Below, one piece after another: positions 23,844 through 60,520 of a stretch of DNA of 64,000 nucleotides; position 1 is the stretch's first letter, and each line of letters opens with the position of its first letter. The stretch comes from Rickettsiales bacterium. Lineage in GTDB: Bacteria; Pseudomonadota; Alphaproteobacteria; Rickettsiales; SXRF01. The position numbers and the translations under genes were made by a program. Below the pieces are notes generated by a model, which saw nothing but the letters and a program-made list of their open reading frames with translations, ran no database searches and was not told where the DNA came from. The DNA lies in the NCBI GenBank assembly GCA_041396965.1, contig JAWKXN010000001.1, positions 1,897,679-1,961,678 on the forward strand, in the 5' to 3' direction.

Positions 23844-24108
23844 GGCTTGTGAGAATATTTTTTATAAAAGTTTTTCAGATAATTTATAGCGACAGTGCGA
23901 ACCTGTTTGCCTTCTCCTCCCGATACAAACATTTTTTCAAACGGAATATTTTTTAGTCGCCTGAATATTAAAAAAGTTGTGTTTTGAGATAGTGCTACGC
24001 TTGTGTGTTTATAGGAGTTATCATAAGAAAAAAGCGGTAATTTGTGCAAAGTATATCAGATTAGATTAGGGTGTCCAGCAGCAACTCAAAAACCGACACG
24101 AAACGAAG

Positions 24109-41684: not shown

Positions 41685-41690
41685 CTAATA

Positions 41691-43520
41691 TCACTCCACA
41701 GTAACCGATTTCGCTAGATTTCTTGGCATATCAACATCTGTGCCTTTAGCGAGCGCCACATGATAAGCTATAAGCTGAATAGGTATGGCGTAAAGAATAG
41801 GAGTAGCGAAAGGATCAGCTTGTGGCATTTCAATAGCGGTCTGAACAATAGAGCCAAGCTTATCTATACCTTTCTTGTCAGAAAGCAGGATAATTTTTCC
41901 GCCACGTGCCGCCACCTCATTGATATTTCCTGCTGTTTTCTCAAAAAGCTCATCCGAAGGAGCAATAGCGATAATTGGTGTTTTATCATCAATAAGAGCT
42001 ATAGGACCATGTTTTAACTCACCAGCTGCCGTCGCTTCCGCCGGAAGATAAGTAATTTCTTTAAGCTTTAACGCTCCTTCAAGCGCTAGTGGATATGACA
42101 AACCACGTCCTATATATACCACATTGCTTACATTAGTTAGTTGCTGACACAAAGCGCGAATAGCATCATCATGGGTTAATACAGCTTGCATTCTTGAAGA
42201 TATTTCAGATAGTGACACGGAAAGATTTGACTCTTCTAAATGAGAAATATTACCCTTACTTACACCAAGCGCCAAAGTAAAACAAGCAAGTGCCATAAGC
42301 TGAGCGGTGAAAGCTTTGGTAGAAGCGACGCCTATCTCAGGTCCGGCGTGTAACTCAAGAACAGCGTCCGCCTCACGCGCCATAGTACTAGTTCCAACAT
42401 TTACGAACGCCAGAGCATACTGACCATGTTCCTTAGCGTAACGCATAGCGGCTAGCGTATCAGCGGTCTCTCCTGACTGAGATATAACTATCGTAAGACC
42501 ACCTTTTTTCAGCACAGGGCGGCGATAACGAAACTCAGACGCTATATCAACCGAAACCGGTACTTTCGCCATCTGCTCCAACCAATATTCGGCGACCATT
42601 CCCGAATAATAAGAAGTTCCACACGCCACAATATTAATTTCTTCTATATCCTTTAGGTCAAAAGAAAAATCCGGCAAGCATATATGACCATCAACCGGAT
42701 GATAATAACCTTTAAGAGCCGTACCCACCACAGAAGGCTGCTCATAAATTTCCTTAAGCATGTAATGTTCATGATGCTCCTTAGCTATCAATACATCCTC
42801 AGTAGCGACCTCTTTCTTCTCACGGACAACAATATTTCCACTCCTATCAAATATTTCCACGCTATTTGTTGTAAGCATAGCTATGTCACCTTCTTCCAGA
42901 TAGGTGATAGTGCGTGTAAAAGGAGCCAGCGCCAAAGCGTCAGAAGCTAGATACATTTCATTATCACCATAACCAATCGCCAAAGGAGAGCCTTGACGAG
43001 CACCAAATAACACATCCTCGTGACCAGAAAAAATAACTCCTATAGCAAAAGCTCCTTCCAAACGTTCAACCGTCTTCTGAATAGCTTCTTTCGGAGATAA
43101 TCCTTCCCTAATATATTTCTGCAATAAATTGGGAATTACCTCTGTGTCAGTCTCCGTTACAAATACCGATCCTTCCGCCGTCAACTCACGACGTAATTCC
43201 AGAAAATTCTCGATAATCCCATTATGCACTACAGCGATATTTTCTGATATATGTGGGTGAGCGTTAATTATGGTAGGCGCGCCATGTGTCGCCCAACGTG
43301 TATGACCAATCGCCGTGCGGCCAACAAGTTTTTCGCTAGTAACAGCTTTTTCCAACTCAACCAGCTTGCCTTTGGCGCGTACACGATATATTGGAGTATT
43401 AGCTTCATTTACCGCTGCTATTCCCGCTGAATCGTACCCTCTATATTCTAAACGCTTTAATCCTTCCAATACCGGACTCACCACATCGTTCTGACTTATT
43501 ATACCAATAATTCCACACAT
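41691..43520 (-). CDS. glmS: Glutamine--fructose-6-phosphate aminotransferase
   Basis: MCGIIGI N-terminus, two SIS domains and a ...KSVTVE C-terminus. Confidence 0.95.
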   Translation of the reverse strand: MCGIIGIISQNDVVSPVLEGLKRLEYRGYDSAGIAAVNEANTPIYRVRAKGKLVELEKAVTSEKLVGRTAIGHTRWATHGAPTIINAHPHISENIAVVHNGIIENFLELRRELTAEGSVFVTETDTEVIPNLLQKYIREGLSPKEAIQKTVERLEGAFAIGVIFSGHEDVLFGARQGSPLAIGYGDNEMYLASDALALAPFTRTITYLEEGDIAMLTTNSVEIFDRSGNIVVREKKEVATEDVLIAKEHHEHYMLKEIYEQPSVVGTALKGYYHPVDGHICLPDFSFDLKDIEEINIVACGTSYYSGMVAEYWLEQMAKVPVSVDIASEFRYRRPVLKKGGLTIVISQSGETADTLAAMRYAKEHGQYALAFVNVGTSTMAREADAVLELHAGPEIGVASTKAFTAQLMALACFTLALGVSKGNISHLEESNLSVSLSEISSRMQAVLTHDDAIRALCQQLTNVSNVVYIGRGLSYPLALEGALKLKEITYLPAEATAAGELKHGPIALIDDKTPIIAIAPSDELFEKTAGNINEVAARGGKIILLSDKKGIDKLGSIVQTAIEMPQADPFATPILYAIPIQLIAYHVALAKGTDVDMPRNLAKSVTVE

Positions 43521-45501: not shown

Positions 45502-45816
45502 TTAAGCAATGATCTTGAATTCAAAACCAGCTATAGGTTTAACTATTTCCGCTATTTTTTTTATAAATTCTATATCTTCTGTGCTCGGACTAAACTTACA
45601 TACCAAATCAATAATTACTCTTTTATTCATTGATTCCGGATATTTTTCCAATATTTCACCACTTTCTATAAATGAAATATAGCAATTCACTTTTTCTTGT
45701 AGCAAAAACAAATGTTGTTCATCTCCCCAAGATAGATGGTCAGATATTGTAAGACGGACATTCTTTTGTTCATCTAAACCAATAAAATCTACTATACTTG
45801 TATCTTCTATAGACAT
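45502..45816 (-). CDS. Small acidic cytoplasmic protein, immunity-like
   Basis: 104 aa, located 9 nt downstream of the toxin-like gene 45826..47010 on the same strand. Confidence 0.4.
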   Translation of the reverse strand: MSIEDTSIVDFIGLDEQKNVRLTISDHLSWGDEQHLFLLQEKVNCYISFIESGEILEKYPESMNKRVIIDLVCKFSPSTEDIEFIKKIAEIVKPIAGFEFKIIA

Positions 45817-47433: not shown

Positions 47434-48864
47434 TCATTCTTCCTTAAAGGCTTTATGGAGGCTATCGGTTATTGGTGCTAGGAGGTAAGAGAAGAAGGAT
47501 CGGGAGCCAGTATTAATAAATACTTCTACGGGCATACCGGGATAGAGTTTTACTTTGTCAGTAAGTTCTTGGAGGGTTTTTCCATCTACTTCAACACGGG
47601 CAGTGTAGTAAGATATGTTTTGCAAGCCTTGCTGTTCATTAAAAGCATCGGCGGAAAGTTGTGTGACCTTACCACCAAGCAGTGGCATACGACGGGATTT
47701 ATAAGCTGAAAGCACGATGCGAGCATGCATTCCAACTTCTACCACATCAATATCGGTTGGTTTTATGTGAACTTCGGCAACCAGCTTGTCACTTTGCGGT
47801 ACTATATCCATAATCGGCTCACCAGCCATTATTACCCCACCAACAGTGTGTGATTTAAGACCAGTAACTATACCCTCTGATGGTGCAGTAACAATTGTGC
47901 GTTTTACCACATCAGTAGCGGCACGTAGCTTTTCTTCAGTATCGTTTATTTTTAGCCGCACCTCTTGTAATTCTTTTGCTATATTAGTTGCGAAGTCATT
48001 TTTAAGATTGATAACTTCCATTTGGGTTTGAGTGATATTTTGTTTGGCTTTGGCGATTTCTGCTGTGTATTGTCCAGCATTTCCCTTAAGCTCCTCTGCC
48101 TTACGTTGTAACTCAAGCAAACGTGATTTAGGGGCTAACCCTTTTTTTTGCAACTTCTCAACAGATTCTATTTCCTCATCTATAAGTTTTAACTGTCCAC
48201 GCGCGCTTGCAAGCTGTGAGGTAAGTCCAATAATTTCTTCTTTGATACTATCAATACGCTGGTTTAATGAATCTATCTTGCCTTTTTGGGTTTCATATTG
48301 ATTGGTAAATAAATCATGCTGTGATTTTATGGTTTTACTTAATTCAGGATGATTTTTGGCAGCATTGCCTAGCTCTTCGGGAAAAACCAGTTTCTCATCT
48401 CCGTCTTGCAACGTTTGCAGGCGAGACTCGGAGGCACGCGCCGCCCATAACTCATTTTGGATTATTCTATGGTTAGCTTTAGGCGCAACATCGCTTATCT
48501 CAAGCAGTGGCTGACCTTCTTTAACTAATTGCCCCTCCTTAACTAATATATTTTTTACAATGCCACCTTCTAAATGTTGAACAGTTTTTCTTTTTGAGAT
48601 AACCGCTACATTGCCACTGGCTATTGCCGCACTTTCTATTGGAACTAGTATTCCAAAAACTATAATGATAATAAAAATAGAGAGGATAACTATCGCGCTT
48701 ACCCTTAGCGGAGCGTAGCTACTAGCAATTGCTGGGTTATCACCTTTATAATTTTTATTAGTGATTATCTTTATAAAGCCATCAATAGACGCAAGAAGAG
48801 AGGCGATACGTGGATGTTTCTCTAGATTTTCAGCCTTATCTTTTATTAAGCTTACTATCCTCAT
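47434..48864 (-). CDS. Type I secretion membrane fusion protein (HlyD/PrtE family)
   Basis: N-terminal TM, long coiled coil and a conserved C-terminus ...GMPVEVFINTGSRSFFSYLLAPI. Overlaps the ABC gene stop. Confidence 0.9.
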   Translation of the reverse strand: MRIVSLIKDKAENLEKHPRIASLLASIDGFIKIITNKNYKGDNPAIASSYAPLRVSAIVILSIFIIIIVFGILVPIESAAIASGNVAVISKRKTVQHLEGGIVKNILVKEGQLVKEGQPLLEISDVAPKANHRIIQNELWAARASESRLQTLQDGDEKLVFPEELGNAAKNHPELSKTIKSQHDLFTNQYETQKGKIDSLNQRIDSIKEEIIGLTSQLASARGQLKLIDEEIESVEKLQKKGLAPKSRLLELQRKAEELKGNAGQYTAEIAKAKQNITQTQMEVINLKNDFATNIAKELQEVRLKINDTEEKLRAATDVVKRTIVTAPSEGIVTGLKSHTVGGVIMAGEPIMDIVPQSDKLVAEVHIKPTDIDVVEVGMHARIVLSAYKSRRMPLLGGKVTQLSADAFNEQQGLQNISYYTARVEVDGKTLQELTDKVKLYPGMPVEVFINTGSRSFFSYLLAPITDSLHKAFKEE

Positions 48865-50564
48865 GCTTCTACCTTATCACTTGCCATTTGAGGCTTATGT
48901 TTACTCGCATAAGCTGCTATAACATCACAGGCAGCACCAAACGCCGCCACTTTGCCATCACGTAAAACTAGAAGCTTATCAACGTGCGAGAGCAAAGCAT
49001 TACGGTGGGTTATAAGCAGAGTAGTTATTTTACGTTCCTTCGCAAATTTTAAGGCACTGGTGAGGGCTGTTATTCCTGCCTCATCAAGATTAGCATCTGG
49101 TTCATCAAGCGTTAGTAAGCACGGATTGCCATAAAATGCTCTTGCTAGACCAACACGCTGCCTCTGACCAGCCGAAAGCATTGCGCCACCATTTCCGATC
49201 TGGGTGTCATAACCATTCTGCAAACGTAAAATAAGTTCATGGGCATTTGCTAGCTGTGCGGAACCAACAACATCTTCCGGTAAAAAATTTTCATTAAAGC
49301 GAGCGATATTTTCTTTTACACTACCAGCAAATAACTCAACATCTTGTGGCAGATAACCAACGGACTTTCCAAATTGCTCTCTTGGCAGAGTTCTTATATC
49401 AGCTCCGTCAAAGCGGATTACTCCTTCACTTTGCTCATATATACCCATAAGCAGGCGGGCAAGTGTTGATTTACCGGATCCGCTCGCGCCAATGATGGCA
49501 AGACTTTCTCCAGCATCCAGTGAAAAACTTATATTTTTAAGAATCGCTTCTTCTCTATTTTCTACTAAGTAAGATAAATTCTCAACAGCTAGCGTACCTT
49601 CTGGTTTAGGAAGTTCCATATTCTCATCATTTTTTCCTTCCTCAGAAAATACTATCTTAAGGCGTTTATAAGCTGCTCTTACATCAGTAAATGAACGCCA
49701 ACTGGCAATCGCCGCCTCAAACGGTGCTAGTGCGCGACTAGCTAAAATAGAAGCGGCAATAATCGCCCCAACCGTAACATGACCATAAATAGCAAGCCAT
49801 GCTGACACGCAAGTTACCATTACCTGTAACGCTAGCCTGATAAACTTTGTTCCGCCCTGTATAACAGAGGAACGGCTTCCCGCTTGCATTTGAAGCTGCG
49901 ATATATTTTTCTGCAATTTACGCCAGCGTGATGATAAAGCTGCTTCCATCGCCATCGCTTTTGTAACTTCAGCATTACGGGTAGCAAGTTCTAACTCCTG
50001 CATTGCCATTACTTGCCTAGCCCCTGCCTCACCAGCAGGGCGGCGCATAGCTGCTTCATTTAGCCAGCCAAGTATAAGTAAAATAATAACACCAGCAACT
50101 ACCAAACTGCCTAAAATAGGGTGTACGATAAATAAAGCGATTATATAAAGAACTGACCATGGTGTATCAACCATAGTAACCAAGCCTTGCCCACCAATGA
50201 ACTGCTTGATTAATGAAGCGTCACGTAAATGTTGCGCGCCACTGCCACCTGACTTCCCCTGCACCAACACTAAAGGTAGTACAAACTCACTGATGGCCTC
50301 ATGTAGCCAGTCGGCAACTCTTTGTAAAGTTACACTACGAAGAGTTTGTAAAAGCCCAGCTGCCGCGAACATGGCAAGCATTATCAGGGTAAGCCATAGC
50401 AAAGTCTCAACACTGCCTGTACTCATCACCCTATCTAAAACCTGCAACGAATATATTGAGATAGGTAGTATAAGCAGGTTAATAAAAAAGCTACTTATCC
50501 CAACTGATAACCATACGGGTCTTAGTGAACGTAATATCTTATCTAGGCGGGTAAATTTAGACAT
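48861..50564 (-). CDS. Type I secretion ABC transporter (PrtD/AprD type, no C39 domain)
   Basis: 567 aa. A six-TM domain followed by GASGSGKST, LSAGQRQR and LLTLDEP. Confidence 0.9.
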   Translation of the reverse strand: MSKFTRLDKILRSLRPVWLSVGISSFFINLLILPISIYSLQVLDRVMSTGSVETLLWLTLIMLAMFAAAGLLQTLRSVTLQRVADWLHEAISEFVLPLVLVQGKSGGSGAQHLRDASLIKQFIGGQGLVTMVDTPWSVLYIIALFIVHPILGSLVVAGVIILLILGWLNEAAMRRPAGEAGARQVMAMQELELATRNAEVTKAMAMEAALSSRWRKLQKNISQLQMQAGSRSSVIQGGTKFIRLALQVMVTCVSAWLAIYGHVTVGAIIAASILASRALAPFEAAIASWRSFTDVRAAYKRLKIVFSEEGKNDENMELPKPEGTLAVENLSYLVENREEAILKNISFSLDAGESLAIIGASGSGKSTLARLLMGIYEQSEGVIRFDGADIRTLPREQFGKSVGYLPQDVELFAGSVKENIARFNENFLPEDVVGSAQLANAHELILRLQNGYDTQIGNGGAMLSAGQRQRVGLARAFYGNPCLLTLDEPDANLDEAGITALTSALKFAKERKITTLLITHRNALLSHVDKLLVLRDGKVAAFGAACDVIAAYASKHKPQMASDKVEA

Positions 50565-50885: not shown

Positions 50886-51260
50886 TTGACAGATAGTAAC
50901 ATAAATATTCTAATAGGCAGAAATTTGCGTCTGAGGCGAATAGAGCTTGGATTAAGTCAAGAGGCTGTCGCAAGAGAGATCGGTATTAGCTTTCAGCAGG
51001 TACAAAAATATGAAAAAGGATCTAACGTTATAAACATAAACAGATTGATGGACTTTGCTGAAGTCTTACGGACGGACATAGACTATATTCTGAAGCAGAG
51101 TAAAACAGGGAAGTCTGACAAACATAATGATAGCTATGATAATCCAAATATAACCTCTGAACGTGAGATTCTAGAAATGATAAAAGTATTCAAGCAGATT
51201 AAAAGTCATGAGATACGCAAAAAAATAGTAGATCTAGCACGCACAGTAGTAGAAAAATGA
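50886..51260 (+). CDS. XRE-family HTH transcriptional regulator
   Basis: LRLRRIELGLSQEAVAREIGISFQQVQKYEKG. Divergent from the T1SS operon. TTG start in the track. Confidence 0.7.
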   Translation: MTDSNINILIGRNLRLRRIELGLSQEAVAREIGISFQQVQKYEKGSNVININRLMDFAEVLRTDIDYILKQSKTGKSDKHNDSYDNPNITSEREILEMIKVFKQIKSHEIRKKIVDLARTVVEK

Positions 51261-51603: not shown

Positions 51604-52302
51604 TTATATAGCCTCCATAATTCTATTTTTACTGGGGTTAATAGTCGTATATAAGTTCCTAATATTAACTGATTCCCTATGTAGAACTTCCTCATCTTCT
51701 ATTAATGAATGATATATCTCAGTTCTATTTTTTATATTATCAAGTATCTCACGATTCACGTTAATCCATCCCGCCACTACTTTTTCACCACTATCAAGAA
51801 TCGTAACCTCACCGATATTGTTTATTGGCCATCCAGAATTAACAAATACAGCTCGCCAAATAAGCGGTGGCATAACTCCAATCATTCCTTTTATATCTAA
51901 GGATAATGCGAACTCTATTTTTGCTTGTAAAATTTCTAATTTAACTCTTTGTCTCATGCTGGCAGATAGTTCACTGTCAATAGCAAATCTTGATGACTCC
52001 CATATACTATCTTCTTCAGGCATATTAATGCGTGTAACCATGCCTGGCCATATATCCTTTATCATATAAGGGCGGTCTGTAGGGGACATTCTTGAGCAGC
52101 CACGAACTATTCCATCGTCATCTTGCCACACAACATAAACAGCAGCCGGAGTATCATAGACATCATATTCCATCTCTTTAAAGACCGGTACATCATAATT
52201 CTGTCTTGCTTTGAATTCTTTATAGCGTAACCTCAGCATTGAAGGCATAACATCGCCATATTTGTGCATATTCTCTATTGTTATTATGCGTGTGTTCATC
52301 AC
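51604..52302 (-). CDS. luxI: LuxI-family acyl-homoserine-lactone synthase
   Basis: RYKEF...EMEYDVYD...RGCSRMSPTDRPYM...WESSRFAID match the conserved LuxI blocks. Confidence 0.8.
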   Translation of the reverse strand: MMNTRIITIENMHKYGDVMPSMLRLRYKEFKARQNYDVPVFKEMEYDVYDTPAAVYVVWQDDDGIVRGCSRMSPTDRPYMIKDIWPGMVTRINMPEEDSIWESSRFAIDSELSASMRQRVKLEILQAKIEFALSLDIKGMIGVMPPLIWRAVFVNSGWPINNIGEVTILDSGEKVVAGWINVNREILDNIKNRTEIYHSLIEDEEVLHRESVNIRNLYTTINPSKNRIMEAI

Positions 52303-52348
52303 AGTCCCTCCATGTTGTTTCGAGGGATGTTAAATATTTTTTGACAAA

Positions 52349-52378
52349 AGTAATGTCGCCCTGTTGGGGGACATTACT
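52349..52378 (-). terminator. 9-bp perfect inverted repeat between luxR and luxI (terminator or operator)
   Basis: AGTAATGTC-N12-GACATTACT overlaps the luxR stop. On the coding strand it is followed by TTTGTCAAAAAATATTT. Confidence 0.35.
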
Positions 52379-53129
52379 CAGACAAAATTTTATGATTATG
52401 ACATAGGTCAGGTGTTATCAGACCAAGAGAAATAGCTTTTACTACAGCCATTTGTATAGAGCTAACCTGCAGTTTTATAAAAATACGTTCTATATATGTT
52501 TTGACAGTTTCATCACTTATGTTCAATATATCAGCGATAACTCCTCTACTTTTACCAGATGCTGCCCAGTTCATGACCTCTTTTTCTCTTTTTGATAATT
52601 GTATTATCGGAGAAGATTTTTCTTCCATGTTACGATATAAAACATGAAATTGTGTGCATAAACTGTAGACAAGGCTAACCGTATTTCTATCTAAATCAAC
52701 TTGTCCAGAACTGCTGGCTACTCCCATCCCTACTATTTCACCGTACGCTCCATGTAACGATATACCAATTCCATCGAGAAGTTTTGCCTCTCTAGCTTCC
52801 TCCATTAGAACGTGCTCGTCTTTGTCCAAACCGTTTTTGAGTTCTGGTAATTTATTCCATAAAAATGGACCACTGGTTTGCTTAATAACTTTAATTACAG
52901 GATCCACCTCAAAATAGTCTTTTGAATAATAATACTTCATCCAATCATCTGGATAGTTTCTTAAAATTCCATGACCTTTTTTTAATTGTAGGCTCGGATG
53001 GTCTGTAATTAAAGAGTAAACTACTCTATCAAACCCTAGTTCTTTTAGGTTTTTTTCAAGTATGTTAAAGGCGTCTTCCACATTAACAGCCTTATTCATT
53101 TCCGATATAAATTTAATGAAATCTATCAT
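52374..53129 (-). CDS. luxR: LuxR-family autoinducer-responsive regulator
   Basis: N-terminal autoinducer-binding-like domain. C-terminal HTH LSKREKEVMNWAASGKSRGVIADILNISDETVKTYIERIFIKL. Confidence 0.85.
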   Translation of the reverse strand: MIDFIKFISEMNKAVNVEDAFNILEKNLKELGFDRVVYSLITDHPSLQLKKGHGILRNYPDDWMKYYYSKDYFEVDPVIKVIKQTSGPFLWNKLPELKNGLDKDEHVLMEEAREAKLLDGIGISLHGAYGEIVGMGVASSSGQVDLDRNTVSLVYSLCTQFHVLYRNMEEKSSPIIQLSKREKEVMNWAASGKSRGVIADILNISDETVKTYIERIFIKLQVSSIQMAVVKAISLGLITPDLCHNHKILSE

Positions 53130-53202
53130 TAATCATAAAAACAACTTACGGTTTATATATTCCTATTTTTTACATCTTTAGTATTAATAAATCAATATTA
53201 AG

Positions 53203-53424
53203 TTAAAAATTATCGTTTGATACGTTAATAATCTGCTTAGTAACAAACTTATTCTCTTTTAACCAACCAATTAATTTTTCTCCAGATTCCTTACTATCTA
53301 CTTCTATAATAGGCTCTATTACACCGGTATGGACTGATTCAACAAAAACAAAATAACCAACATTATAATAACTACAGTAATATTTTTTTCTATTTTGTTT
53401 TGACATATAAATAACACTAGCCAC
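53203..53424 (-). CDS. Hypothetical small protein
   Basis: ORF only. Confidence 0.25.
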   Translation of the reverse strand: MASVIYMSKQNRKKYYCSYYNVGYFVFVESVHTGVIEPIIEVDSKESGEKLIGWLKENKFVTKQIINVSNDNF

Positions 53425-53617
53425 TTTTCTTCTCTTAGGGATAAAATTTACGGTATTTTCTTACACAATCAATATACCATTAATTGCTAGATTCTAATTC
53501 AAAACTAAAATTATTGGAATAATTTTCATTTTATTTCCATAGTCGTGCTAATATTATACATTGGTACAAGATAAATATACTATATGTTTTGAGTTATAGC
53601 TTTCCTTACGCTCCACC

Positions 53618-53824
53618 CTACAACAGGAAATCGCCTGTTTCTAGCGCATGCAACCCAGCTAGTTGTATCTCGAAGTCGGCGAGTCCGTTAGCGTCGGAGT
53701 CTATAGCGATTATTGTGTTACCGCCTAGTTGTGAGTAGTTAACTTCGTTAGCTGTGGCGGAGAAGCTATTTGTTCCCATGAATATGAAGTCACCGGTGAG
53801 GTCTGATATATCTATTAGGTCTGG
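53618..53824 (-). pseudogene. Remnant of the last ~68 codons of a paralogous RTX toxin (T1SS signal region)
   Basis: The reverse complement translates as IDISDLTGDFIFMGTNSFSATANEVNYSQLGGNTIIAIDSDANGLADFEIQLAGLHALETGDFLL*. This is near-identical to the C-terminus of 16054..23694. Confidence 0.85.
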
Positions 53825-53830
53825 TTAACT

Positions 53831-54089
53831 TTAGAGAGGGTTTTTTCTTAAACTGGTGAGTAGCATATCATAGATATTCTGCTTACGCGAGTTGAATCTA
53901 AATTGACACTCGGTGAGATGGAGGCGCAGTTTTGCATAAATTACCTTGCAACTGCGGTGCGAAATGCCAGTCAGTTTGGATGCCTCCAGTTGCATTCAAA
54001 TCAAGTGCAAAACACCTGAGTAAATGACGAAATTTACCCTCCGTAATATGCGAACGGCGATAATACTTGTTTTTGCCAGCTTTTCTCAT
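53831..54089 (-). pseudogene. Internally deleted, frameshifted IS1595-family transposase remnant
   Basis: N-terminal YYRRSHITEGKFRHLLRCFALDLNAT. After a frameshift: SKLTGISHRSCKVIYAKLR...ECQFRFNSRKQNIYDMLLTSLRKNPL* (conserved family C-terminus). The catalytic core is missing. Confidence 0.6.
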
Positions 54090-54189
54090 GCCTTAGCTAC
54101 TATCAGAATTAGCTAAAGTTCGCTAGAACCTAAATAATATAGGAAGTGACCATATCCAGTGCCTTTTTAGTACGTTCAGTATCTCCTTA

Positions 54190-54240
54190 ATCTCAACCCA
54201 ACTTAGCATAAATATTTAAGCCAATGTAATTGTCGTTGGC
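54190..54240 (-). repeat. ANDNY cap element, short form
   Basis: The reverse complement gccaacgacaattacattggcttaaatatttatgctaagttgggttgagat matches 9728..9779. Confidence 0.8.
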
Positions 54241-56268
54241 TGACACCCTATCGCCCGCTTCGGGATCTGTGATGGTATCTAGCCCCTCGCCTTTATTTAC
54301 AACGAACCGGTCATCGCCATCATCAGATACTATGGTGTCATTGCCACCATCACCGAAAATAACATCATCATCCGCACCGCCAGAGATAAAGTCATCACCA
54401 TCACCGCCCGATATATGGTCACTACCAACATCACCCACCAGCGTATCATTACCCGCTTTACCTTCCAGATAATCAGAGCCACTACCGCTGAATATAGAGT
54501 CATCCGCATCTGTCCCCACAAGAACGTCTTGCCCAGTATTACCCAGAATAGTGGTGATACCTTGTGAGACAATAGTTGAGCCATTAGCGTTCACCGCCAC
54601 CAATGCAGGTATAGTTCCGCCATTGCCATCATCTATTTGCTGAACTTGATAAATGCTGTTAAGAACCAAATTCGGATCGCCAAACTCACCATCGTAGAAC
54701 TTCTTGCTACCAAAGAGTGAACCAAGAATTTTACCAGCAACAAGGGCGACAACAGCTGCTGCAACAATCGCAACAGGCCCTCCAGCGGCGGATGAGCCAA
54801 TTATCGCTGTTGCAATTGCATCACCGGCAATAACAGAACCAGCGGCTATGCCAACTTGCGCCCCTAAATTTAACCAATCACCACTATCAAAACCATTACT
54901 GTTTAGTAGCCCGCTTACGGCGGTAGTAATTGCCGCTACTGTGGCATTGGCATCTGTTACAGAATTAGGGAATATTTCTTTTGCGTAACGTGCGGCAACA
55001 ACGCCTGAAATAGTAGTTATCCCAGCATTGATATATTGCTGACTATTCCAGCCATCAGAATGTAAAGCGAAGTCCACAGCCATGCGTGAAAGCGCGGTTG
55101 CGAGATCGCCAGATAGAGTTTCCACCAGACCTGCGTCCACCCCTAATTCTTGCAATGAGTCCTGTATAACAGCAGAAGCATCATTTACGGTAACGATATT
55201 ACCAATTTGATCGGCAAGGATACGCTCACCAAAAAATTGAGCGAGGCTGATAAAAGCATCATCCGCACTTAGATTGCCATCAACCAAATTCTGCATATTA
55301 GCACCCAGCCATTGCGCGAATATAAGTTGCGCGCCTTCACCATTAGTGAACCATTGGGTTGCCTCATCCACCTGCGTGGATATAAAATTGGCTGTGGATG
55401 TGGCGAGGTTTTCTACAGAATCTATTACTTCATTAAAATAGTAAGAATCGTTAGCGACATTGATAATTTTGTTGTCATCCACAAGACTAATCGCATAGCC
55501 GCTATTGTAATCTTCTAAAATATCAATTCCATCCAGATTGGTAAATGTACCACCAATAGCATCAGAAATCTTAAACACATTCGTACCGCTGATAGATATG
55601 GTATTGGTATCTGTTATTTTGTTGGCACCAAAGCGGCTTTCTAAATAAGCATTCACACTGCCATCAAAATCAAATGATATTTCGTTGGCTAGCCCTTCAA
55701 TACCGTTAAATAAATGTATCCCGTTAGTGTCTGAGGAGCTAGTAAGTTGTATGAAAAATTCTTTAACATCCGTAATTACGGTCGTTCCAAATGACAGCCT
55801 CATATATATTTCAACTGGAGTGTCCAAGCCTATCGCCCCGTCAGAAAAATAATCCAATATAGTGCCACCAATGCCAGTGGCTTCTAATACATCCTGTGCA
55901 AAATCAACACAATTGTGGGCAAGAAACACATAATTTTCACGATCATCAACCAAACCTTTTGGGGGTATGATAGCATAACCATGAGCTTCATCCATTGCGG
56001 CGATATATTGAGCTTCTGTTAATTCTATCGGAATAGACTGGACATGCTCATAACCTTGATTATCAATATGCTGAGTAAAAGCAGCTTCATCATGTATAGA
56101 TTCATCACTATATAACGAGCCTATTCCATGATCTTCCGGCCATTTCCCACGATACACACTACTTGATGAGCCATCATTAATAGCTTTAAGTTCTACAAAA
56201 GTATGCCCGACATTTGGAAAACCTCCATTATCCGTAACGTGAAATATAAGCTGATAGGTTGTAGACAT
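54193..56268 (-). CDS. Truncated RTX toxin module: papain-like (His...Cys, PPPDE/LRAT-like) N-terminal domain + Gly/Ala-rich hydrophobic region + RTX repeats, ANDNY-capped
   Basis: VGHTFVEL ... YVFLAHNCVDFAQ. GIAAGSVIAGDAIATAIIGSSAAGGPVAIVAAAVVALVAG. GSGSDYLEGKAGNDTLVGDVGSDHISGGDGDD. It ends RVS-ANDNYIGLNIYAKLG* with no secretion signal. Confidence 0.6.
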   Translation of the reverse strand: MSTTYQLIFHVTDNGGFPNVGHTFVELKAINDGSSSSVYRGKWPEDHGIGSLYSDESIHDEAAFTQHIDNQGYEHVQSIPIELTEAQYIAAMDEAHGYAIIPPKGLVDDRENYVFLAHNCVDFAQDVLEATGIGGTILDYFSDGAIGLDTPVEIYMRLSFGTTVITDVKEFFIQLTSSSDTNGIHLFNGIEGLANEISFDFDGSVNAYLESRFGANKITDTNTISISGTNVFKISDAIGGTFTNLDGIDILEDYNSGYAISLVDDNKIINVANDSYYFNEVIDSVENLATSTANFISTQVDEATQWFTNGEGAQLIFAQWLGANMQNLVDGNLSADDAFISLAQFFGERILADQIGNIVTVNDASAVIQDSLQELGVDAGLVETLSGDLATALSRMAVDFALHSDGWNSQQYINAGITTISGVVAARYAKEIFPNSVTDANATVAAITTAVSGLLNSNGFDSGDWLNLGAQVGIAAGSVIAGDAIATAIIGSSAAGGPVAIVAAAVVALVAGKILGSLFGSKKFYDGEFGDPNLVLNSIYQVQQIDDGNGGTIPALVAVNANGSTIVSQGITTILGNTGQDVLVGTDADDSIFSGSGSDYLEGKAGNDTLVGDVGSDHISGGDGDDFISGGADDDVIFGDGGNDTIVSDDGDDRFVVNKGEGLDTITDPEAGDRVSANDNYIGLNIYAKLG

Positions 56269-56280
56269 TTTTCATTTCCC

Positions 56281-56754
56281 TTATCTATAAGATTTTCTAT
56301 ATTTTTCTTCTCTTTCTTGCCAGATGTGTGTAAGAGAATTTGCTTTATCGATTTCCTCTTTAGTCATATGTTTTTCAAGTGATTTTCTAGTCTTTCTGTA
56401 GCTAATTTTAAAGTTATCAGCTAACAGGAAGTGAGCATACGCTTTAACATAGCTAGTTTTGACACCAAGGCTACTTCTCCATTTAAAGGCTTTTAACAAT
56501 TTTTCTTTTCTCTCATCAGGTAGATTATCATTTGGAGTAAAGCAAACTTCACCACAAAAGACTTCCGCAAGAGCAACGTGAGAATCGCTATTACCCATCT
56601 TTGCTCCCTCAATATATTCAGCTAATTCCTTATCAGCCTTTGCTGAGCCTGTAGAATAGCTGGTATCCATCATTTCCATTAACTCTGCCTCTGAATATCG
56701 CGTGCATGCCGCCAGTAATATTGGCAGCATAAATATATATAAAAATTTTCTCAT
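56281..56754 (-). CDS. Lipoprotein, putative immunity protein
   Basis: Lipobox LLAAC. It sits directly upstream of the toxin module and overlaps the stop of the acyltransferase gene. Confidence 0.45.
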   Translation of the reverse strand: MRKFLYIFMLPILLAACTRYSEAELMEMMDTSYSTGSAKADKELAEYIEGAKMGNSDSHVALAEVFCGEVCFTPNDNLPDERKEKLLKAFKWRSSLGVKTSYVKAYAHFLLADNFKISYRKTRKSLEKHMTKEEIDKANSLTHIWQEREEKYRKSYR

Positions 56755-57254
56755 CCCTCCGCCTTCCTCTCATCTATCACATTCCCCTCACTAGCAAACA
56801 CCATCAGCTTCTTGCAGTTGGTTGCTGGGTTGAAGCGCACGGCGTGGGCTTTGTGGTTTGGGTAGTGTTTTTTCAGGTCGCTGATAATTCTTTTCGCGTG
56901 TCCGAACGGGGCGATAAACTCCATAATGTAGATAATATCACCACTTGCCCATTCTTCTAAAGTAAGCGGCTTGGACTCATTTAAGAATTTATCCTCCACC
57001 TCTTTAGAAAACTTCGCCCATGACACAAAGCCTACAGGTCTGTTACTTGCGTCATGATAAATACGATATTGATTTAACTGCACTGGCGGCAGAACAACTT
57101 CACTAAAATGCTTAATCTTATAATCAGCATGGGCGGAGGAAGCGGTCATAAGAGTTAAAATATCACCAAGCAAACGGCTGCGCTTATCAGGCGGCATAAT
57201 AGCCAGAATATTATTTTTGTTATTAACCATCTGAGGCTTTGCTAAACCAATCAT
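56751..57254 (-). CDS. RTX toxin-activating lysine acyltransferase (HlyC/CyaC family)
   Basis: LPPVQLNQYRIY...RPVGFVSWAKFS...EWASGDIIYIMEFIAPFGH parallels the E. coli HlyC blocks (QANQYVLL...YPVAYCSWANLS...DWTSGDRKWFIDWIAPFG). Confidence 0.8.
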   Translation of the reverse strand: MIGLAKPQMVNNKNNILAIMPPDKRSRLLGDILTLMTASSAHADYKIKHFSEVVLPPVQLNQYRIYHDASNRPVGFVSWAKFSKEVEDKFLNESKPLTLEEWASGDIIYIMEFIAPFGHAKRIISDLKKHYPNHKAHAVRFNPATNCKKLMVFASEGNVIDERKAEG

Positions 57255-57448
57255 AAATATTTTAACTTTTAATGACTAAAAAGAGTTAACAAAAAACTAT
57301 ATCAACCGATGGTTGTCAATGAAAAATTAGTACTATTAGATGGTTTTAATTATACCGCTTGTAACCAATAGCTATTGTAGGAAAAAAATCCTTATGCTAG
57401 AAACAGCCAAAAATGCCCTATATTAAAAGTGCTAAGGACAAGTAACTA

Positions 57449-58996
57449 ATGAAAAAGCTGTTTTTATATTCTCTTCCTATAGTATTTACACTAATTGCAG
57501 TAGTTCTATTAAAAAATGCTTTTCTCAAAGGTGAGGGGTTCCAAAAGCAATCATACGTGACTATGGAAACTCAAAAGTGGGAGTATGTTGAAAAAACTCC
57601 AGAAAACAAAATTTCTGTCCCGACTTCTGGCAATAAAATCACCATAAATGTTTCATCACCTACTAAGCTTATTGATTCTACTATTAGTGGAACGATAATA
57701 TCCGCTTACTCCAAAGACAATAAACTAGTTTTCTCAGCGGGCTTTCCACTAACTTGGAACACCTACTCCGCATCTAGCGCGCTTGGTGAGATTCATATGT
57801 TCGTACGAACCCCTAATATGGATTCAGAATTTATTGCCTTACCTAGAACTATAGAGAGTTTACGTAGTGCATACGTAATAAAGTCAGATGAGAAGCTGTT
57901 TTTATTTGATGCACCTGACGGTGATTATTATCCTCTAAAAGACTCTAAAATTGGCAAATATATTTTTGATAATAATCCCGTTAAAATATCTCCTGAGCCA
58001 TTCAAAAATATAGGTTATCAATACTCTTATGGAGCGGAGAAAAATGGAGACTGGGTAGTAAAGGCGTGTAAATTATCTAAGCCTAATGATTGTAATAAAA
58101 TTGCTACAACACCTAAATCCATAGTCTTTGCCTATGGCGGCAATGAGTTAAATACGGTTGCCGTTACTAATAGAGGCGATGTCTTGTTTCATAATAGGCA
58201 GGGATGGTGTAGAGGAAAAAAGACTTCTGACGGCGGAGTTAAATGTGACAAGCAAGCAAAAGACTTTGATGCTCTTTATAAAACACAATTATATTCTTCT
58301 ATAAGAGCTAAAGATGGAACATTGCTTGGCGAATACCCAACTGGTAGGTTCTGGAAATTGGGGGATGGAATTATAACACCAACACCTCTTAGCCCCTATG
58401 ATGATACGGAGCATAAGAATCGTGAGCTTCAATCTGTTTCAATGTTTTGCGGTGATTTATATGCTGGCTTTTGGCCACAAGGTGAGGTTTGGGAAAAGCC
58501 ATTAGAGAGTAACGGTTGGATAAAAACAAAAAGACTATTCTCACATCCAGTAGTAAAAGATGGAGATGTTCCCTATCTGTCTAATTTAGAATCTGGTAAT
58601 AATGGCAAATATCCTGCCTATTCATTTTTTGGACAGCGCGCGACATCTATGGTTAATTATAAAAACTCTCTATTTATATCTTCTTCAAATTTAGGTGGAT
58701 GGAGTAAAGATATTCCAAAACCATCCTTTATGACAGATTCTCAGGCCAATGAATATGGCAGGATTTATAGCAAAACTGATAGTAACTGTTTAACAACTGT
58801 CATTGACAGTAATGTAAATCTAGTAATCACGATAGATTCAAACTCTATGTCTGTTACCAACAACGGCAAAGAAATCGCTAAAACCAACCTTCATGATTTT
58901 GACATTAAACAGATAGATTACTTTACCATAGGAGATGGAATCTTTGGCAAGATTAGTGATGAAAATATAGATGTTAACTTTTTGAACAATAATTAA
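57449..58996 (+). CDS. Hypothetical exported/anchored protein
   Basis: N-terminal hydrophobic segment. No family recognised. Confidence 0.45.
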   Translation: MKKLFLYSLPIVFTLIAVVLLKNAFLKGEGFQKQSYVTMETQKWEYVEKTPENKISVPTSGNKITINVSSPTKLIDSTISGTIISAYSKDNKLVFSAGFPLTWNTYSASSALGEIHMFVRTPNMDSEFIALPRTIESLRSAYVIKSDEKLFLFDAPDGDYYPLKDSKIGKYIFDNNPVKISPEPFKNIGYQYSYGAEKNGDWVVKACKLSKPNDCNKIATTPKSIVFAYGGNELNTVAVTNRGDVLFHNRQGWCRGKKTSDGGVKCDKQAKDFDALYKTQLYSSIRAKDGTLLGEYPTGRFWKLGDGIITPTPLSPYDDTEHKNRELQSVSMFCGDLYAGFWPQGEVWEKPLESNGWIKTKRLFSHPVVKDGDVPYLSNLESGNNGKYPAYSFFGQRATSMVNYKNSLFISSSNLGGWSKDIPKPSFMTDSQANEYGRIYSKTDSNCLTTVIDSNVNLVITIDSNSMSVTNNGKEIAKTNLHDFDIKQIDYFTIGDGIFGKISDENIDVNFLNNN

Positions 58997-59058: not shown

Positions 59059-60180
59059 ATGAATAATAAGACAAACACAAAAAATAACTTTTACCTGTCC
59101 CTTGAGCTACTAAGAGGTCTATGTGCTTTAGAAGTCGTACTCTGGCATTGTTTTGCGCGCATTGATGATGTGTTTTTAAGAATTAGTCCCACATTTAAGT
59201 TCGTATATCACGCGTTTCTACGAGGGTCAGACATAGCAATTATTGGTTTTTTTGTGCTTAGTGGCTTTGTAACAACTGCCAGTTTTATTAAATATTTTAA
59301 TAAATATAATATAGCAAAAGCCGTAACCATATTCTATGCGGCACGTATGCTGCGTATATGGTCACTAACCTTCATAACAGTGTTGGTTTCTGTTGGTATC
59401 AGCTGGCACTACCGGACTATGTCGGGAAATTGGTCGGCATGGGAAAAATATGACCATTTTGATCTGAGTAACATTATAGGAGGGATGTTTGGTCTTAATC
59501 CACACTGGAACGCTCCGATGTGGACTCTTACATATGAACTCGCATTTTATAGCATATTACCCTTTTTTATGTTAGCGATATTACGAACTAACTACTTAAT
59601 AAAAGCAATCTCGCTAGTTATAACAGGTTTTCTTACTTTTTTTTTACTAAAAAGTGAGATAGTTCCTTTACCACATCTAGTTACTCCATTCTTATTTGGG
59701 ATCGCGATATATTTTATCAGAGACTTATCTTATTTGCGTATATTTTTTACATCAAATCTTAATAAGATTTTATTTTTTGCTGTCGCAGTAACCAGCGTAA
59801 TCTATGTGAGTTGGGAATATTTACCGCAAAACCCCTATAACATAAAAAAATATTTTCTTGTTACTCTGGTGGTGCTTGGTCTGGTTTTTAGTGAAAGTTT
59901 TTTTATAAAATATAAAGAGACAAAAGTAATAAAAATGCTCACTGGTCTATCTATGTGCTCATACAGCCTGTATTTATGGCATTATGTCATATTATGGTTT
60001 ACGGGAATGTATATGTTCGGCTCTATGAACGCACGTAGCACTACAGAGATCTTTGTATTATTTTCAATAGCTGTCCCTACAATTATCTTGGTTACTTGGA
60101 TGTCGTGGTATTTTATCGAACGTAACGCAAAGATGAAAAGAATATTGCCTCTTTTTGAAAAGAAATCGGCAAAAAGTTAA
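59059..60180 (+). CDS. Membrane acyltransferase family 3 protein
   Basis: About 10 TM segments with the N-terminal LRGLCALEVVLWH motif typical of Acyl_transf_3. Confidence 0.7.
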   Translation: MNNKTNTKNNFYLSLELLRGLCALEVVLWHCFARIDDVFLRISPTFKFVYHAFLRGSDIAIIGFFVLSGFVTTASFIKYFNKYNIAKAVTIFYAARMLRIWSLTFITVLVSVGISWHYRTMSGNWSAWEKYDHFDLSNIIGGMFGLNPHWNAPMWTLTYELAFYSILPFFMLAILRTNYLIKAISLVITGFLTFFLLKSEIVPLPHLVTPFLFGIAIYFIRDLSYLRIFFTSNLNKILFFAVAVTSVIYVSWEYLPQNPYNIKKYFLVTLVVLGLVFSESFFIKYKETKVIKMLTGLSMCSYSLYLWHYVILWFTGMYMFGSMNARSTTEIFVLFSIAVPTIILVTWMSWYFIERNAKMKRILPLFEKKSAKS

Positions 60181-60443: not shown

Positions 60444-60520
60444 TGGTTGCGGGGGCCGGATTTGAACCGACGACCTTTAGGTTATGAGCCTAACGAGCTA
60501 CCAGGCTGCTCCACCCCGCG
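60444..60520 (-). tRNA. tRNA-Met (CAU), initiator type, CCA encoded
   Basis: The reverse complement CGCGGGGTGGAGCAGCCTGGTAGCTCGTTAGGCTCATAACCTAAAGGTCGTCGGTTCAAATCCGGCCCCCGCAACCA folds as a cloverleaf. It has a C1:A72 mismatch and is nearly identical to E. coli tRNA-fMet. Confidence 0.9.

Follow-up and report, generated by a model that had tools for sequence, protein, structure and literature searches.

A decayed RTX toxin locus with an HlyC-type acyltransferase gene: a polymorphic RTX toxin system of an apparently undescribed kind

Our analysis of a 64,000-nucleotide stretch of DNA from a Rickettsiales bacterium (the window) indicates that its positions 53618 to 57254 are probably the decayed expression locus of a rare type-I-secreted RTX toxin family, equipped with an HlyC-type acyltransferase and an N-terminal variable toxin domain. 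The cognate substrate of the acyltransferase would be the 691-aa toxin type, not the FrpC-like 2546-aa toxin whose intact gene (16054..23694) is 33 kb away. We class the locus as a degraded representative of a polymorphic RTX toxin system whose particular variant has apparently not been described before. To judge from the sequences compared here, the toxin domain that varies in this variant is the N-terminal one, and stored cassettes lie upstream.

The gene order proposed by an earlier sequence-only reading (HlyC-family gene, lipoprotein, capped RTX module, IS1595 relic, RTX 3' end) is borne out. Read along the minus strand, hlyC is followed by a lipobox gene, a 691-aa RTX ORF with its cap, a small-gene relic, the IS1595 relic and the RTX 3' relic. 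Besides hlyC and the lipoprotein gene, the first 676 codons of a core-type toxin are intact. The relevant features are:

56751..57254, minus strand: gene of an HlyC/CyaC-family toxin-activating lysine acyltransferase (PF02794, E 1.1e-34, 119 bits, cut-off 25)
56281..56754, minus strand: small lipobox protein gene, 157-aa ORF (signal peptide and lipobox MRKFLYIFMLPILLAAC, read from sequence)
54193..56268, minus strand: 691-aa RTX module of variable N-terminal domain, family core, first RTX block and cap (PF00353, E 1.8e-25)
55519..56268, minus strand: N-terminal domain, aa 1-250, with His22 (GHTFVEL) and Cys119 (AHNCVDF)
54595..55485, minus strand: family-specific hydrophobic core, aa 262-558 (profile from alignment A1, E 1e-134)
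54700..54705, minus strand: Lys522-Lys523 (GSKKFYDGEF), candidate acylation site (column conservation in the core)
54241..54564, minus strand: RTX nonapeptide repeats, aa 569-676 (PF00353; CyaA and lipase RTX blocks in PDB)
54193..54240, minus strand: ANDNY cap, 15 codons and stop, ANDNYIGLNIYAKLG (53 nt 94% identical to 9726..9778)
54131..54192, minus strand: relic of the next small gene, about 21 codons, IKEILNVLKRHWIWSLPILF, its ATG now ATT (paralogue of 12720..13226)
53823..54130, minus strand: IS1595-family relic, 308 bp, ends GGTTCTAGCGAACTTTAG and CTAAAGTTAACC (tblastn to annotated IS1595 family transposases)
53618..53821, minus strand: 3' relic of a full-length RTX gene, 67 codons ending in GDFLL and stop (similarity on to 53604, 14 nt past the stop)
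48861..50564, minus strand: type I secretion ABC transporter, 567 aa (PF00005 and PF00664)
47434..48864, minus strand: type I secretion membrane-fusion protein (HlyD_3 and HlyD_D23)
9726..9778, plus strand: cap twin in the first array, forming an inverted repeat with 54190..54242

The hlyC gene is apparently intact and, from its sequence, its product looks functional. The protein (159 aa from the NCBI start at 57230) contains all 26 residues invariant in its subfamily (n = 19, the window protein included) and shares 55-73% identity with 17 relatives and 48% with the most distant one. It matches the ApxC structure 4WHN with an E-value of 1.1e-17, and the histidine (SSAH/SPLH) and asparagine (LNQY/SNQY) align. 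A check of all six frames found no second HlyC-like ORF, in agreement with the earlier statement that this is the only toxin-activating acyltransferase of the window. The hlyC stop overlaps the ATG of the lipobox ORF as ATGA (junction ggagggATGAgaaaa). No family match was found for the 157-aa lipobox protein, Pfam LPAM_1 reaching an E-value of only 0.27. The equivalent position in L003, L010, L013, L015 and L016 is occupied by a small gene of unrelated sequence; this is presumed to be the position of an immunity gene.

Residues 1-661 of the 691-aa ORF align with the 2942-aa protein P0036 from its residue 1, with 38% identity. The ORF contains a Gly/Ala-rich hydrophobic region and lacks a C-terminal secretion signal. 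Its first 250 residues are presumed to be the toxin domain. The papain-like His...Cys fold proposed for them was not confirmed: His22 and Cys119 are conserved in P0036, the sole full-length homologue, yet Pfam, PDB and profile comparison gave no match, and two AlphaFold (AF2) models have pLDDT of 40-44. The core profile matches this ORF alone within the window. Its only lysine-rich columns are K513 (19/31), K522 (22/31) and K523 (13/31). The best conserved of them, Lys522, is missing in nine of 31 family members; K522 and K523 closely precede two invariant residues, G527 and E528, and fall between hydrophobic segment and RTX block. The core is not detectably homologous to those parts of HlyA or CyaA that are acylated. 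The RTX block is shorter than in full-length relatives, L003 and P0036 continuing to repeat where the ORF diverges, after VSDDGDD.

The core family is rare, with 49 representatives among 1.84 billion proteins. The core begins anywhere from residue 163 to residue 693 across them, so the N-termini of the family vary. HlyC homologues adjoin an RTX gene in seven of eight readable contigs. In six cases the gene bears the 691-type core (L003/L007, L006, L010, L012, L013, L015); in L009 the HlyC homologue stands after an RTX C-terminus only, at the contig end. Intact relatives have the order hlyC, small gene (often for a signal-peptide protein or lipoprotein) and a toxin of 1100-3400 aa. This toxin is composed of a variable N-terminal domain, the hydrophobic core with the GSKKFYDGEF lysine segment, long RTX repeats and a secretion tail of the type ...DF-hydrophobic; the C-terminus of P0036 is of the same tail type as the window's 3' relic. 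In L015, hlyC is followed by a 194-aa gene, a 581-aa capped module, a small gene and the full-length toxin, and in L016 two capped modules, with a small gene after each, precede a 4336-aa toxin. Each of these modules shares with the gene downstream an arm of 240-570 nt at 91-100% identity. The predicted layout is found intact in two other organisms, and the search for an intact version in relatives, suggested earlier, was answered by L003, L015, L016 and P0036.

The cap links the locus to the first array. Its ANDN head, which equals the start of alphaproteobacterial tmRNA tags, shows synonymous variation only. A Shine-Dalgarno-like AAGTTGGG lies in the 3' half of the cap, together with what was once the start of the small gene behind it. 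Members of the cap family also occur in L008, L014, L015, L016, P0076 and P0077, which represent five or more further assemblies or metagenome contigs, and displaced cassettes of the first array and of other organisms are closed by the same junction. Between cap and IS lies a 62-nt small-gene relic that had been overlooked (blastn of 54200..54132 against 12711..12779: 74% over 69 nt, E 3.5e-6). Since it stands directly behind the cap, a further cassette unit once stood here. The claim that one array grammar is used at two sites holds on account of this 12720-like relic and the twin cap.

The IS relic has both transposase ends of an IS1595 element (fragments 53898..54089 and 53831..53995; residues 4-58 and 192-225 of an annotated 226-aa transposase, 42% and 56% identical) and inverted-repeat-like termini. 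Unlike the family, it has lost the catalytic middle (about residues 59-191), carries a frameshift and has no target-site duplication in its flanks. It joins two non-contiguous fragments, codon ~21 of the small gene and the last 67 codons of the RTX gene. The earlier view that a full-length gene was lost beside the IS is upheld by this join, the missing duplication and the intact relatives. The RTX 3' remnant is real, but "nearly identical" overstated its likeness to the end of the 2546-aa gene: the DNA is 83-86% identical to 23497..23708, and the protein matches the 2546-aa C-terminus at 55/69 positions, P0036 at 36/68 and P0032 at 34/69. At the amino-acid level the relic thus resembles the end of the 2546-aa gene (80%) more than it does the ends of core-family genes (about 50%). 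This is expected for within-genome paralogues, but does not prove what N-terminus the lost gene had. We propose that the ancestral locus would have comprised hlyC, the lipoprotein gene and a full-length toxin gene. Recombination would then have brought a new unit of cap, small gene, N-terminus and homology arm, and the former 5' part would have stayed behind, capped and no longer exportable. IS insertion with adjacent deletion would have wrecked the new expression gene, and the IS itself would have decayed last. Cassette displacement would thus be earlier than IS damage.

It had been implied that the acyltransferase acts on the 2546-aa product. This link is unsupported, since that protein lacks the core and HlyC homologues adjoin core-type genes. 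An acyltransferase serving the 2546-aa toxin in trans, the two loci being one system with its activator stranded at the eroded site, would account for a sole and intact-looking HlyC-like gene. Although hlyC is intact, the 20 largest family representatives include no full-length core-type toxin from this genome, so hlyC may have another substrate. Cap, small-gene type and 3' end are common to both loci, and over its last 630 aa the 2546-aa protein is 41% identical to the C-terminus of P0036. We nevertheless regard action on the 2546-aa toxin in trans as unlikely: the core is missing from the 2546-aa protein and from all array modules (best profile E-value there >0.4). These proteins have instead an FrpC-like Asp-Pro self-processing motif (residue 610), found in 0 of 49 core-family proteins. 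Two different toxin families are thus present at the two loci; what they have in common is the cap, the type of small gene and the export region at the C-terminus.

The 691-aa protein might also be a working stand-alone product, kept in the cell or exported otherwise, for example, with the IS and 3' relic as unrelated debris. Its ORF is intact and follows the lipoprotein gene closely. All 13 capped modules for which DNA sequence is available keep the reading frame, and purifying selection acts on the cap head, which makes their translation probable. This reading appears quite unlikely to us, because the protein lacks the ...DF-hydrophobic tail of the 2546-aa toxin and many full-length family members (13 among those listed), the same toxin has full-length counterparts, and capped modules in L015 and L016 always stand upstream of a full-length gene with a near-identical common arm. 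Inversion between the inverted type-B caps (9726..9778 and 54190..54242) could have exchanged the downstream parts of the two loci; in the former arrangement, the array with the intact 2546-aa gene at its end would have begun with hlyC, the lipoprotein gene and the 691-aa module, and the array 323..9775 would have ended in the IS-damaged gene. These are the window's only two IYAK(V/L)G-type caps, inverted and 94% identical over 53 nt, and the cap ends are the exact limits of similarity. Such an exchange is improbable, however: 53 nt is a short recombination substrate, the alternative arrangement was not found in related genomes, and the small-gene start reads smoothly at both junctions, which favours neither arrangement.

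In intact loci of the core family, HlyC would acylate Lys522/523 of the core, and the toxin would be exported via its C-terminal signal by an AprD-type ABC/MFP system. The N-terminal domain would be delivered by the core and RTX part and the producer protected by the small gene. In the window, type I secretion genes follow on the same strand at a distance of 3 kb.

The arrangement resembles operons of the hlyCABD/cyaCABDE type (HlyC-HlyA, CyaC-CyaA, ApxC-ApxA) in having an HlyC-family gene beside an RTX gene, ABC and membrane-fusion genes downstream on the same strand, and a toxin with hydrophobic region, lysine-bearing segment, RTX repeats and C-terminal signal in this order. CyaA has a separate N-terminal domain ahead of its hydrophobic, acylated and RTX part, and so do core-family toxins. 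Unlike these systems, the core family has a variable N-terminal domain and no detectable homology to RTX N-terminal or acylated regions, and a small lipoprotein or signal-peptide gene stands between C and A. Furthermore, the ABC protein of the window lacks an HlyB-like N-terminal domain, as its ABC_membrane domain begins at residue 23; luxR/luxI and two further genes separate the toxin end from the export genes; and the gene is accompanied by truncated capped cassettes.

In Neisseria meningitidis, the lipoprotein gene frpD lies directly upstream of the RTX gene frpC in one operon, and FrpC-type proteins vary in an N-terminal domain of ~350 aa (PMC5472700). The window shares the lipoprotein gene directly before the RTX gene and the N-terminal variation, and its first-locus proteins share the Asp-Pro processing motif (GIDPLILDMDGDG); the 691-aa protein and its family differ in lacking this motif and in their link to HlyC. 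That review of FrpD-FrpC contains no mention of upstream arrays of 3'-truncated capped cassettes. Orphan cassettes are known from the polymorphic toxin loci CdiA/TpsA-tpsC, MafB-CT and Rhs (PMC3482391, PMC5472700), polymorphic toxins being defined by their C-terminal toxin domains (PMC3482391). Common to these and the RTX loci are a single full-length secreted toxin with truncated, non-exportable cassettes, an own small gene per cassette, a short arm near-identical to the expression gene and highly diverse toxin domains. The RTX layout is their mirror image, with an N-terminal variable domain, 3'-truncated upstream cassettes and the small gene before the toxin, which fits a C-terminal secretion signal; its cassettes end in a conserved translated cap, whereas the others begin with a conserved motif.

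The caps begin with (A)ANDN, then Y/W/L/N/C/G/S, and comprise 12-16 residues, like alphaproteobacterial tmRNA tags such as AANDNFAEEFAVAA of Caulobacter SsrA (PMC9393093) and ANDNYRSAGTPALAVA of Rickettsia bellii (ARAGORN table). Longer double-ANDN forms resemble the tags of Ehrlichia and Micavibrio, and cap and tag alike form the extreme C-terminus of a truncated protein. The cap differs in being gene-encoded, not tmRNA-added, no tmRNA-like RNA having been found at the caps; their tails are tag-like no more than by chance and most are without the final AA. Upstream of hlyC, both in the window and in L003, lies a divergent Acyl_transf_3 gene.

The locus at 53618-57254, on the minus strand, belongs, in decayed form, to an apparently undescribed and rare variant of RTX/polymorphic toxin systems. 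It had been read from sequence alone as an IS-eroded second RTX locus; that reading holds and the observation behind it is real. The locus and the genes downstream of it are made up as follows.

56751..57254, minus: HlyC-family acyltransferase gene, hlyC (PF02794, E 1.1e-34)
start overlapping the hlyC stop as ATGA, minus: 157-aa ORF with signal peptide and lipobox, by sequence reading
54193..56268, minus: 691-aa ORF, beginning 12 bases past the 157-aa ORF
53823..54130, minus: relic of an IS1595-family element, cutting a small-gene relic at 54130
53618..53821, minus: 3' relic of an RTX gene, 67 codons and stop, ending ...GDFLL, directly after the IS relic
downstream, same strand: 73-aa ORF, luxR, luxI, 112-aa ORF, then ABC (567 aa) and membrane-fusion genes of type I secretion
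51604..53129, minus: luxR and luxI, the latter for an autoinducer synthase, located after the RTX-gene relic and before the type I secretion genes
50886..51260, plus: Xre-type HTH protein, on the strand opposite to the downstream genes

The position of the luxI/luxR pair between relic and secretion genes suggests quorum-sensing control of the region. A scan of 53000..57700 for promoters and terminators gave no enrichment over shuffled sequences. The 567-aa ABC protein agrees with a Rickettsia felis study, according to which an Apr-like type I secretion system is encoded by all Rickettsiales. The best NCBIfam match of the Xre-type protein is Wolbachia WO male-killing (Wmk), at E 9e-15 and far below the family cut-off.

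The hlyC product matches PF02794 with 119.4 bits (cut-off 25) over model positions 2-122 of 127, and is the sole toxin-activating acyltransferase of the window, as previously stated: one HlyC-like ORF is found across six frames. It aligns with the ApxC structure 4WHN (E 1.1e-17) so that SSAH lies opposite SSPLH and LNQY opposite SNQY, and the active-site His and Asn positions of ApxC are retained. The catalytic role of this histidine, together with the neighbouring asparagine, is established for ApxC/HlyC. Within a subfamily of 19 sequences, the window protein and 18 homologues (17 at 55-73% identity, one at 48%), H34 and the other 25 invariant residues are all kept in the window protein.

Only one small gene separates hlyC from the toxin gene. 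Family searches with this 157-aa lipobox ORF gave no match; from their position and their signal peptide or lipobox, small genes beside the toxins are presumed to be immunity genes. The 691-aa ORF (window G+C ~38%) is identical to a database entry labelled "hypothetical protein", which can now be annotated as the 5' part of a destroyed toxin gene. Its product consists of an N-terminal domain, a Gly/Ala-rich hydrophobic region, ~110 residues of RTX repeats (PF00353, E 1.8e-25, 6 stretches; RTX blocks of CyaA in PDB match as well) and the cap, a short ANDN-headed peptide of 15 codons, ANDNYIGLNIYAKLG. NCBIfam RTX_toxin and PDB matches are confined to residues 559-690, and no homologue of the N-terminal hydrophobic/acylated region of classical RTX cytolysins (HlyA/CyaA/ApxA) is detectable. 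As the ORF ends in the cap, it lacks a C-terminal type I secretion signal; the ...GDFLL tail occurs only in the separate 67-codon relic. The N-terminal domain had been called papain-like, which was not confirmed: no match came from Pfam at E 10, from profile comparison with PDB or from hhalign with a DeSI-type sequence, and AlphaFold models reached pLDDT of 39.9 (single-sequence) and 44.5 (3-sequence). A word-index search found no homologues of this domain either; P0036, a related protein of 2942 aa, surfaced only in a full HMMER scan.

The part of the 691-aa protein that is shared with relatives is a core of ~300 residues (aa 262-558, alignment A1), collected through HlyC homologues and the 691-aa protein itself. 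Against Pfam, even at E 10, the core matches only HemolysinCabind and no other family. When 1.84 billion representative proteins were scanned in full with HMMER, just 49 carried it, mostly 1200-3400 aa long and with unrelated N-termini; since the core begins anywhere between residues 163 and 693, the part ahead of it is variable. Among species-representative genomes, a collection outside which the source MAG lies, only two loci have the core, and JGI metagenome contigs gave zero confirmed relatives. One member, P0037, is annotated as coming from a Phaeodactylibacter (Bacteroidota) MAG, so that the family is either not confined to Alphaproteobacteria or has been transferred. P0036 aligns with residues 1-661 of the 691-aa protein at 38% identity, contains its GH(T/G)FVE and NCVDF motifs and is the only one among the 49 to share its N-terminus.

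The partner of the acyltransferase can be judged from gene neighbourhoods, readable in ten contigs of relatives (one, L002, stops too early to show an hlyC neighbour). Of 8 readable relatives, 7 have an RTX gene adjoining the hlyC homologue, and in 6 of these the RTX gene bears the core (L003/L007, L006, L010, L012, L013, L015); in L009, hlyC comes after an RTX C-terminus. An Acyl_transf_3 gene lies divergently upstream of hlyC in L003 and has a counterpart at 59059..60180 in the window. It had been proposed that the acyltransferase activates the distant intact toxin, the 2546-aa product of 16054..23694 on the plus strand, and the sequences lend this no support. Within the window the core profile matches only the 691-aa ORF (E 1e-134), with nothing below E 0.4 in the 2546-aa protein and the array modules. 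The 2546-aa toxin has at residue 610 an FrpC-like Asp-Pro motif, GIDPLILDMDGDG, found in 0 of the 49 core proteins, although its C-terminal 630 aa are 41% identical to those of P0036. Judged by these sequence features, the 2546-aa toxin and the array modules are of a different type from the 691-aa protein. Because hlyC adjoins core-bearing genes and the 2546-aa type carries the Asp-Pro motif instead, the natural partner of the acyltransferase appears to be the 691-aa type.

Three core columns only are rich in lysine, K513, K522 and K523 (GKILGSLFGSKKFYDGEF). The latter two lie shortly before G527 and E528, both invariant, in the stretch that links the hydrophobic segment to the RTX block. We infer from this conservation that Lys522/523 is a candidate site at which HlyC would acylate an internal lysine of the toxin in an acyl-ACP-dependent reaction. 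None of the 20 largest core-family representatives (cluster representatives only) comes from the source contig, and HlyC may therefore have no exportable substrate left in this genome. A rare toxin family that is tied to an HlyC-type acyltransferase and has no detectable similarity to the classical acylated regions would represent a new and testable class of lysine-acylation substrates, and the acyltransferase should not be assumed to activate the neighbouring giant RTX protein.

Behind the cap, the locus consists of relics. When the locus was compared with 1..24200 by blastn, the 62 nt past the cap stop (54131..54192) matched the first part of the small gene 12720..13226 at 74% identity, and they read IKEILNVLKRHWIWSLPILF against MKKILYWIGRHWILSLFLLI, with the ATG mutated; hence a further small gene once stood behind the cap, as in the first array. 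The earlier claim that the array grammar is used at a second site is thus borne out by a twin of the cap and by this relic right behind it. The relic is cut by the IS1595-family remnant, identified through tblastn matches to features annotated "IS1595 family transposase" (BLASTP E 2e-12 and 3e-12). Joined over a frameshift, its two short ORFs correspond to residues 4-58 and 192-225 of a 226-aa annotated IS1595 transposase; residues ~59-191, the catalytic middle, are missing and the DDE domain is incomplete. The ends of the remnant are inverted-repeat-like (GGTT...AACTTTAG), and a target duplication is absent, as the flanks ATTATTTA and AGACCTAA differ.

The 67-codon relic that follows had been described as nearly identical to the C-terminus encoded by 16054..23694. 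The actual values are 83-86% for DNA, continuing 14 nt beyond the stop, and 55/69 for protein, and with protein identity this low the relic is a paralogue and not a near-identical copy. The C-terminus of P0036, ...DFQIELTGLHTLTAEDFVL, is of the same tail type (36/68 identical). As P0036 matches both, the 691 codons and the 67-codon relic look like two ends of one kind of toxin; the relic may instead derive from a gene that replaced the toxin of the 691-aa type. A single gene split by simple insertion was rejected, as a cap, a stop and the relic of another small gene intervene, and the stretch leading up to the cap resembles the big gene only in generic RTX repeats, at ~70%.

The modular logic of these loci is best seen in the first array.

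323..23694, plus: first array, in which six RTX modules truncated at the 3' end precede the full-length gene of the 2546-aa toxin

The module ORFs end at 1414, 4487, 7240, 9775, 12687 and 15633, and every module after the first has its own small gene in front. Module arms are 66-90% identical to the full-length gene, with differing break points, and an ANDN-type cap ends all six, in some cases lengthened by a common extension (…IIPAPARGS…NP-ANDNY). The Asp-Pro motif is present in the full-length gene and in four of the modules. The N-terminal domains differ in kind across 323..1414, 2103..4487, 8279..9775, 10357..12687 and 16054..: two are lipase-like (Mbeg1-like/Lipase_3, GHSLGG), one has a HELEH zinc-peptidase motif and two are hydrophobic, Gly/Ala-rich and pore-former-like.

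A search for intact versions of the eroded locus, suggested by the sequence-only reading, was successful: L003, L015 and L016 carry layouts expected before IS damage. In L003, hlyC, a 324-aa gene and a toxin of 1116 aa or more follow each other and the cap is absent. L015 contains a divergent hlyC and a 194-aa gene, then a 581-aa module that closes with AANDNWPMGEMRELG; the small gene behind it has a start overlapping the stop of the cap, and a full-length toxin comes last. Over the ~310 nt that precede its cap, the module agrees with the corresponding stretch of the full-length gene at 92-100% identity. In L016, a 4336-aa toxin is preceded by a pair of capped modules with a small gene behind each, and the module arms are 91% and 95% identical to the toxin gene. 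The layout of the L015/L016 type is the expected state of the window locus before IS damage. The 1116-aa toxin ORF of L003 is ended by a single stop at 14714..14719, after which the next ORF resumes the same protein, contiguous in L006; a pseudogene, a sequencing error or read-through are suggested alternatives. Integrases, a serine recombinase, terminase, ParB, or GTA/phage-tail-like genes lie beside toxin loci in L015 (4686..5753 and 20811..21249), L016 (1..8474) and L002 (5655..9547), and the cassettes may travel on mobile elements.

The core family resembles polymorphic toxins in combining a variable toxin domain with a conserved delivery region, the core starting at residue 163-693. Their near-identical cassette arms have counterparts in the first array and in L015/L016 (91-100%); at 53618..57254 the partner gene of such an arm is deleted, and only the cap and the relic of the next unit remain. 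Polymorphic toxins have a C-terminal toxin domain and downstream cassettes (PMC3482391), whereas here the variable domain stands at the N-terminus and the cassettes precede the full-length gene. In the comprehensive survey of these toxins, a C-terminal toxin domain is the defining feature and type I secretion comes up only in connection with classical RTX toxins (PMC3482391), and a meningococcal review covers FrpD-FrpC together with the tpsC and mafB-CT cassettes that lie downstream (PMC5472700). In the literature searched, which was covered incompletely, no description was found of upstream, 3'-truncated, capped RTX cassettes or of an HlyC-linked core family. The concept of polymorphic toxins would thus be extended to type I secretion, with N-terminal warheads, upstream spare cassettes and a C-terminal export signal.

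The most intriguing of the loose ends is the conserved cap. Caps are found at seven ORF ends in the window and also in L008 (twice), L014, L015, L016 (twice), P0076 and P0077; their sequences include ANDNYVDISVNTAIAS, ANDNYIGLNIYAKLG and ANDNCNYEIKIAA. Over 53 nt, the cap DNA of the 691-aa ORF shares 94% identity with 9726..9778, where a first-array module ends. Caps join the modules at differing points of the conserved region, in frame in 13 of 13 cases with DNA. The head reads (A)ANDN plus Y, W, L, C, G or S, the exceptions being one TNDNH and one VNDNG. Over the four ANDN codons of 5 organisms, 21 synonymous and 0 non-synonymous pairwise differences were counted, the Ala codon using all four third bases; this purely synonymous variation indicates selection on the head peptide. 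The 3' half of the cap comprises a Shine-Dalgarno-like stretch and the start of the next small gene, a pattern shared by the 3' ends of hlyC in relatives (...GTGGGATGA).

The head, (A)ANDN followed by F/Y, is also the start of alphaproteobacterial tmRNA tags, such as that of Caulobacter, AANDNFAEEFAVAA (PMC9393093), that of R. bellii, ANDNYRSAGTPALAVA, and the double-ANDN tags of Ehrlichia and Micavibrio (the latter three from the built-in table of ARAGORN). For 13 of 13 caps the best match in this table has an ANDN head, and all matches but one (Haliangium) are alphaproteobacterial. The cap-versus-tag scores are 27-38, the 95th percentile of the null being 27; cap tails alone score inside the null. 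An SsrA-like (L/V/I)AA end occurs only in L008 (IAA), other caps ending in AIAS, KVCA, EKSA, KVG, KLG, RVG or ELG.

One reading, which we hold to be improbable, is that the cap serves as an encoded degron and coupling signal securing stored toxin cassettes. By the sequence pattern, every displaced, non-exportable module would close with an in-frame, translated cap. The 3' half of this cap would couple translation to the next immunity gene, the stop overlapping or just preceding the start and a Shine-Dalgarno-like sequence lying inside the cap. The head, (A)ANDN plus an aromatic residue, would mimic the adaptor-binding start of the alphaproteobacterial tmRNA tag, through which the useless toxin fragment would be passed to ClpXP-type proteolysis. 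Because the tails score within the null and no tmRNA-like RNA is found at the caps, we keep the degron and coupling role at the level of hypothesis; alternatively, the head may be derived from a degenerate RTX repeat (G-NDN-L). Two other origins were rejected. Structural pieces of a tmRNA gene are ruled out, since neither ARAGORN nor Rfam shows a tmRNA-like RNA at the caps; across the window, ARAGORN and Rfam (at gathering threshold and E 10) found no tmRNA and a tRNA-Met only. Origin from the 3' end of hlyC is opposed by likeness restricted to the last codons (…VG*, the Shine-Dalgarno-plus-start region) and by the lack of a counterpart of the ANDN head in 19 HlyC C-termini. A back-translated ANDNYVDIS pattern had zero matches in JGI metagenome contigs. 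If the proposed role is true, the cap would be a gene-encoded copy of a ribosome-rescue degron that punctuates a mirror-image polymorphic toxin system of the N-terminal kind; if the tmRNA link is real, it would be the first genome-encoded rescue tag policing stored toxin fragments.

At 7229..8655 of L008, two adjacent capped modules have the same terminal 40-odd nt (…GWDAGQYRAANDNCNYEIKIAA*) and identical ~30 nt after both caps, and only the first cap leads into a module ORF; this is a tandem duplication of the cap junction. In the window, just two caps belong to the IYAK(V/L)G type, 9726..9778 and 54190..54242; lying 44 kb apart, they form a 53-bp inverted repeat of 94% identity. Recombination between them would bring the units 9759..23694 directly behind hlyC, the lipoprotein gene and the 691-aa module.

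Other features of the window include, on the minus strand, a PgaB-like deacetylase/glycosyl hydrolase, a GT2 glycosyltransferase and glmS in a row at 37927..43520, by its gene content a locus for exopolysaccharide of the poly-N-acetylglucosamine type. Past the secretion genes, a DUF6572 protein (45502..45816, minus; E 3e-34) is encoded beside a 394-aa ORF; the tRNA-Met gene lies at 60444..60520 on the minus strand.
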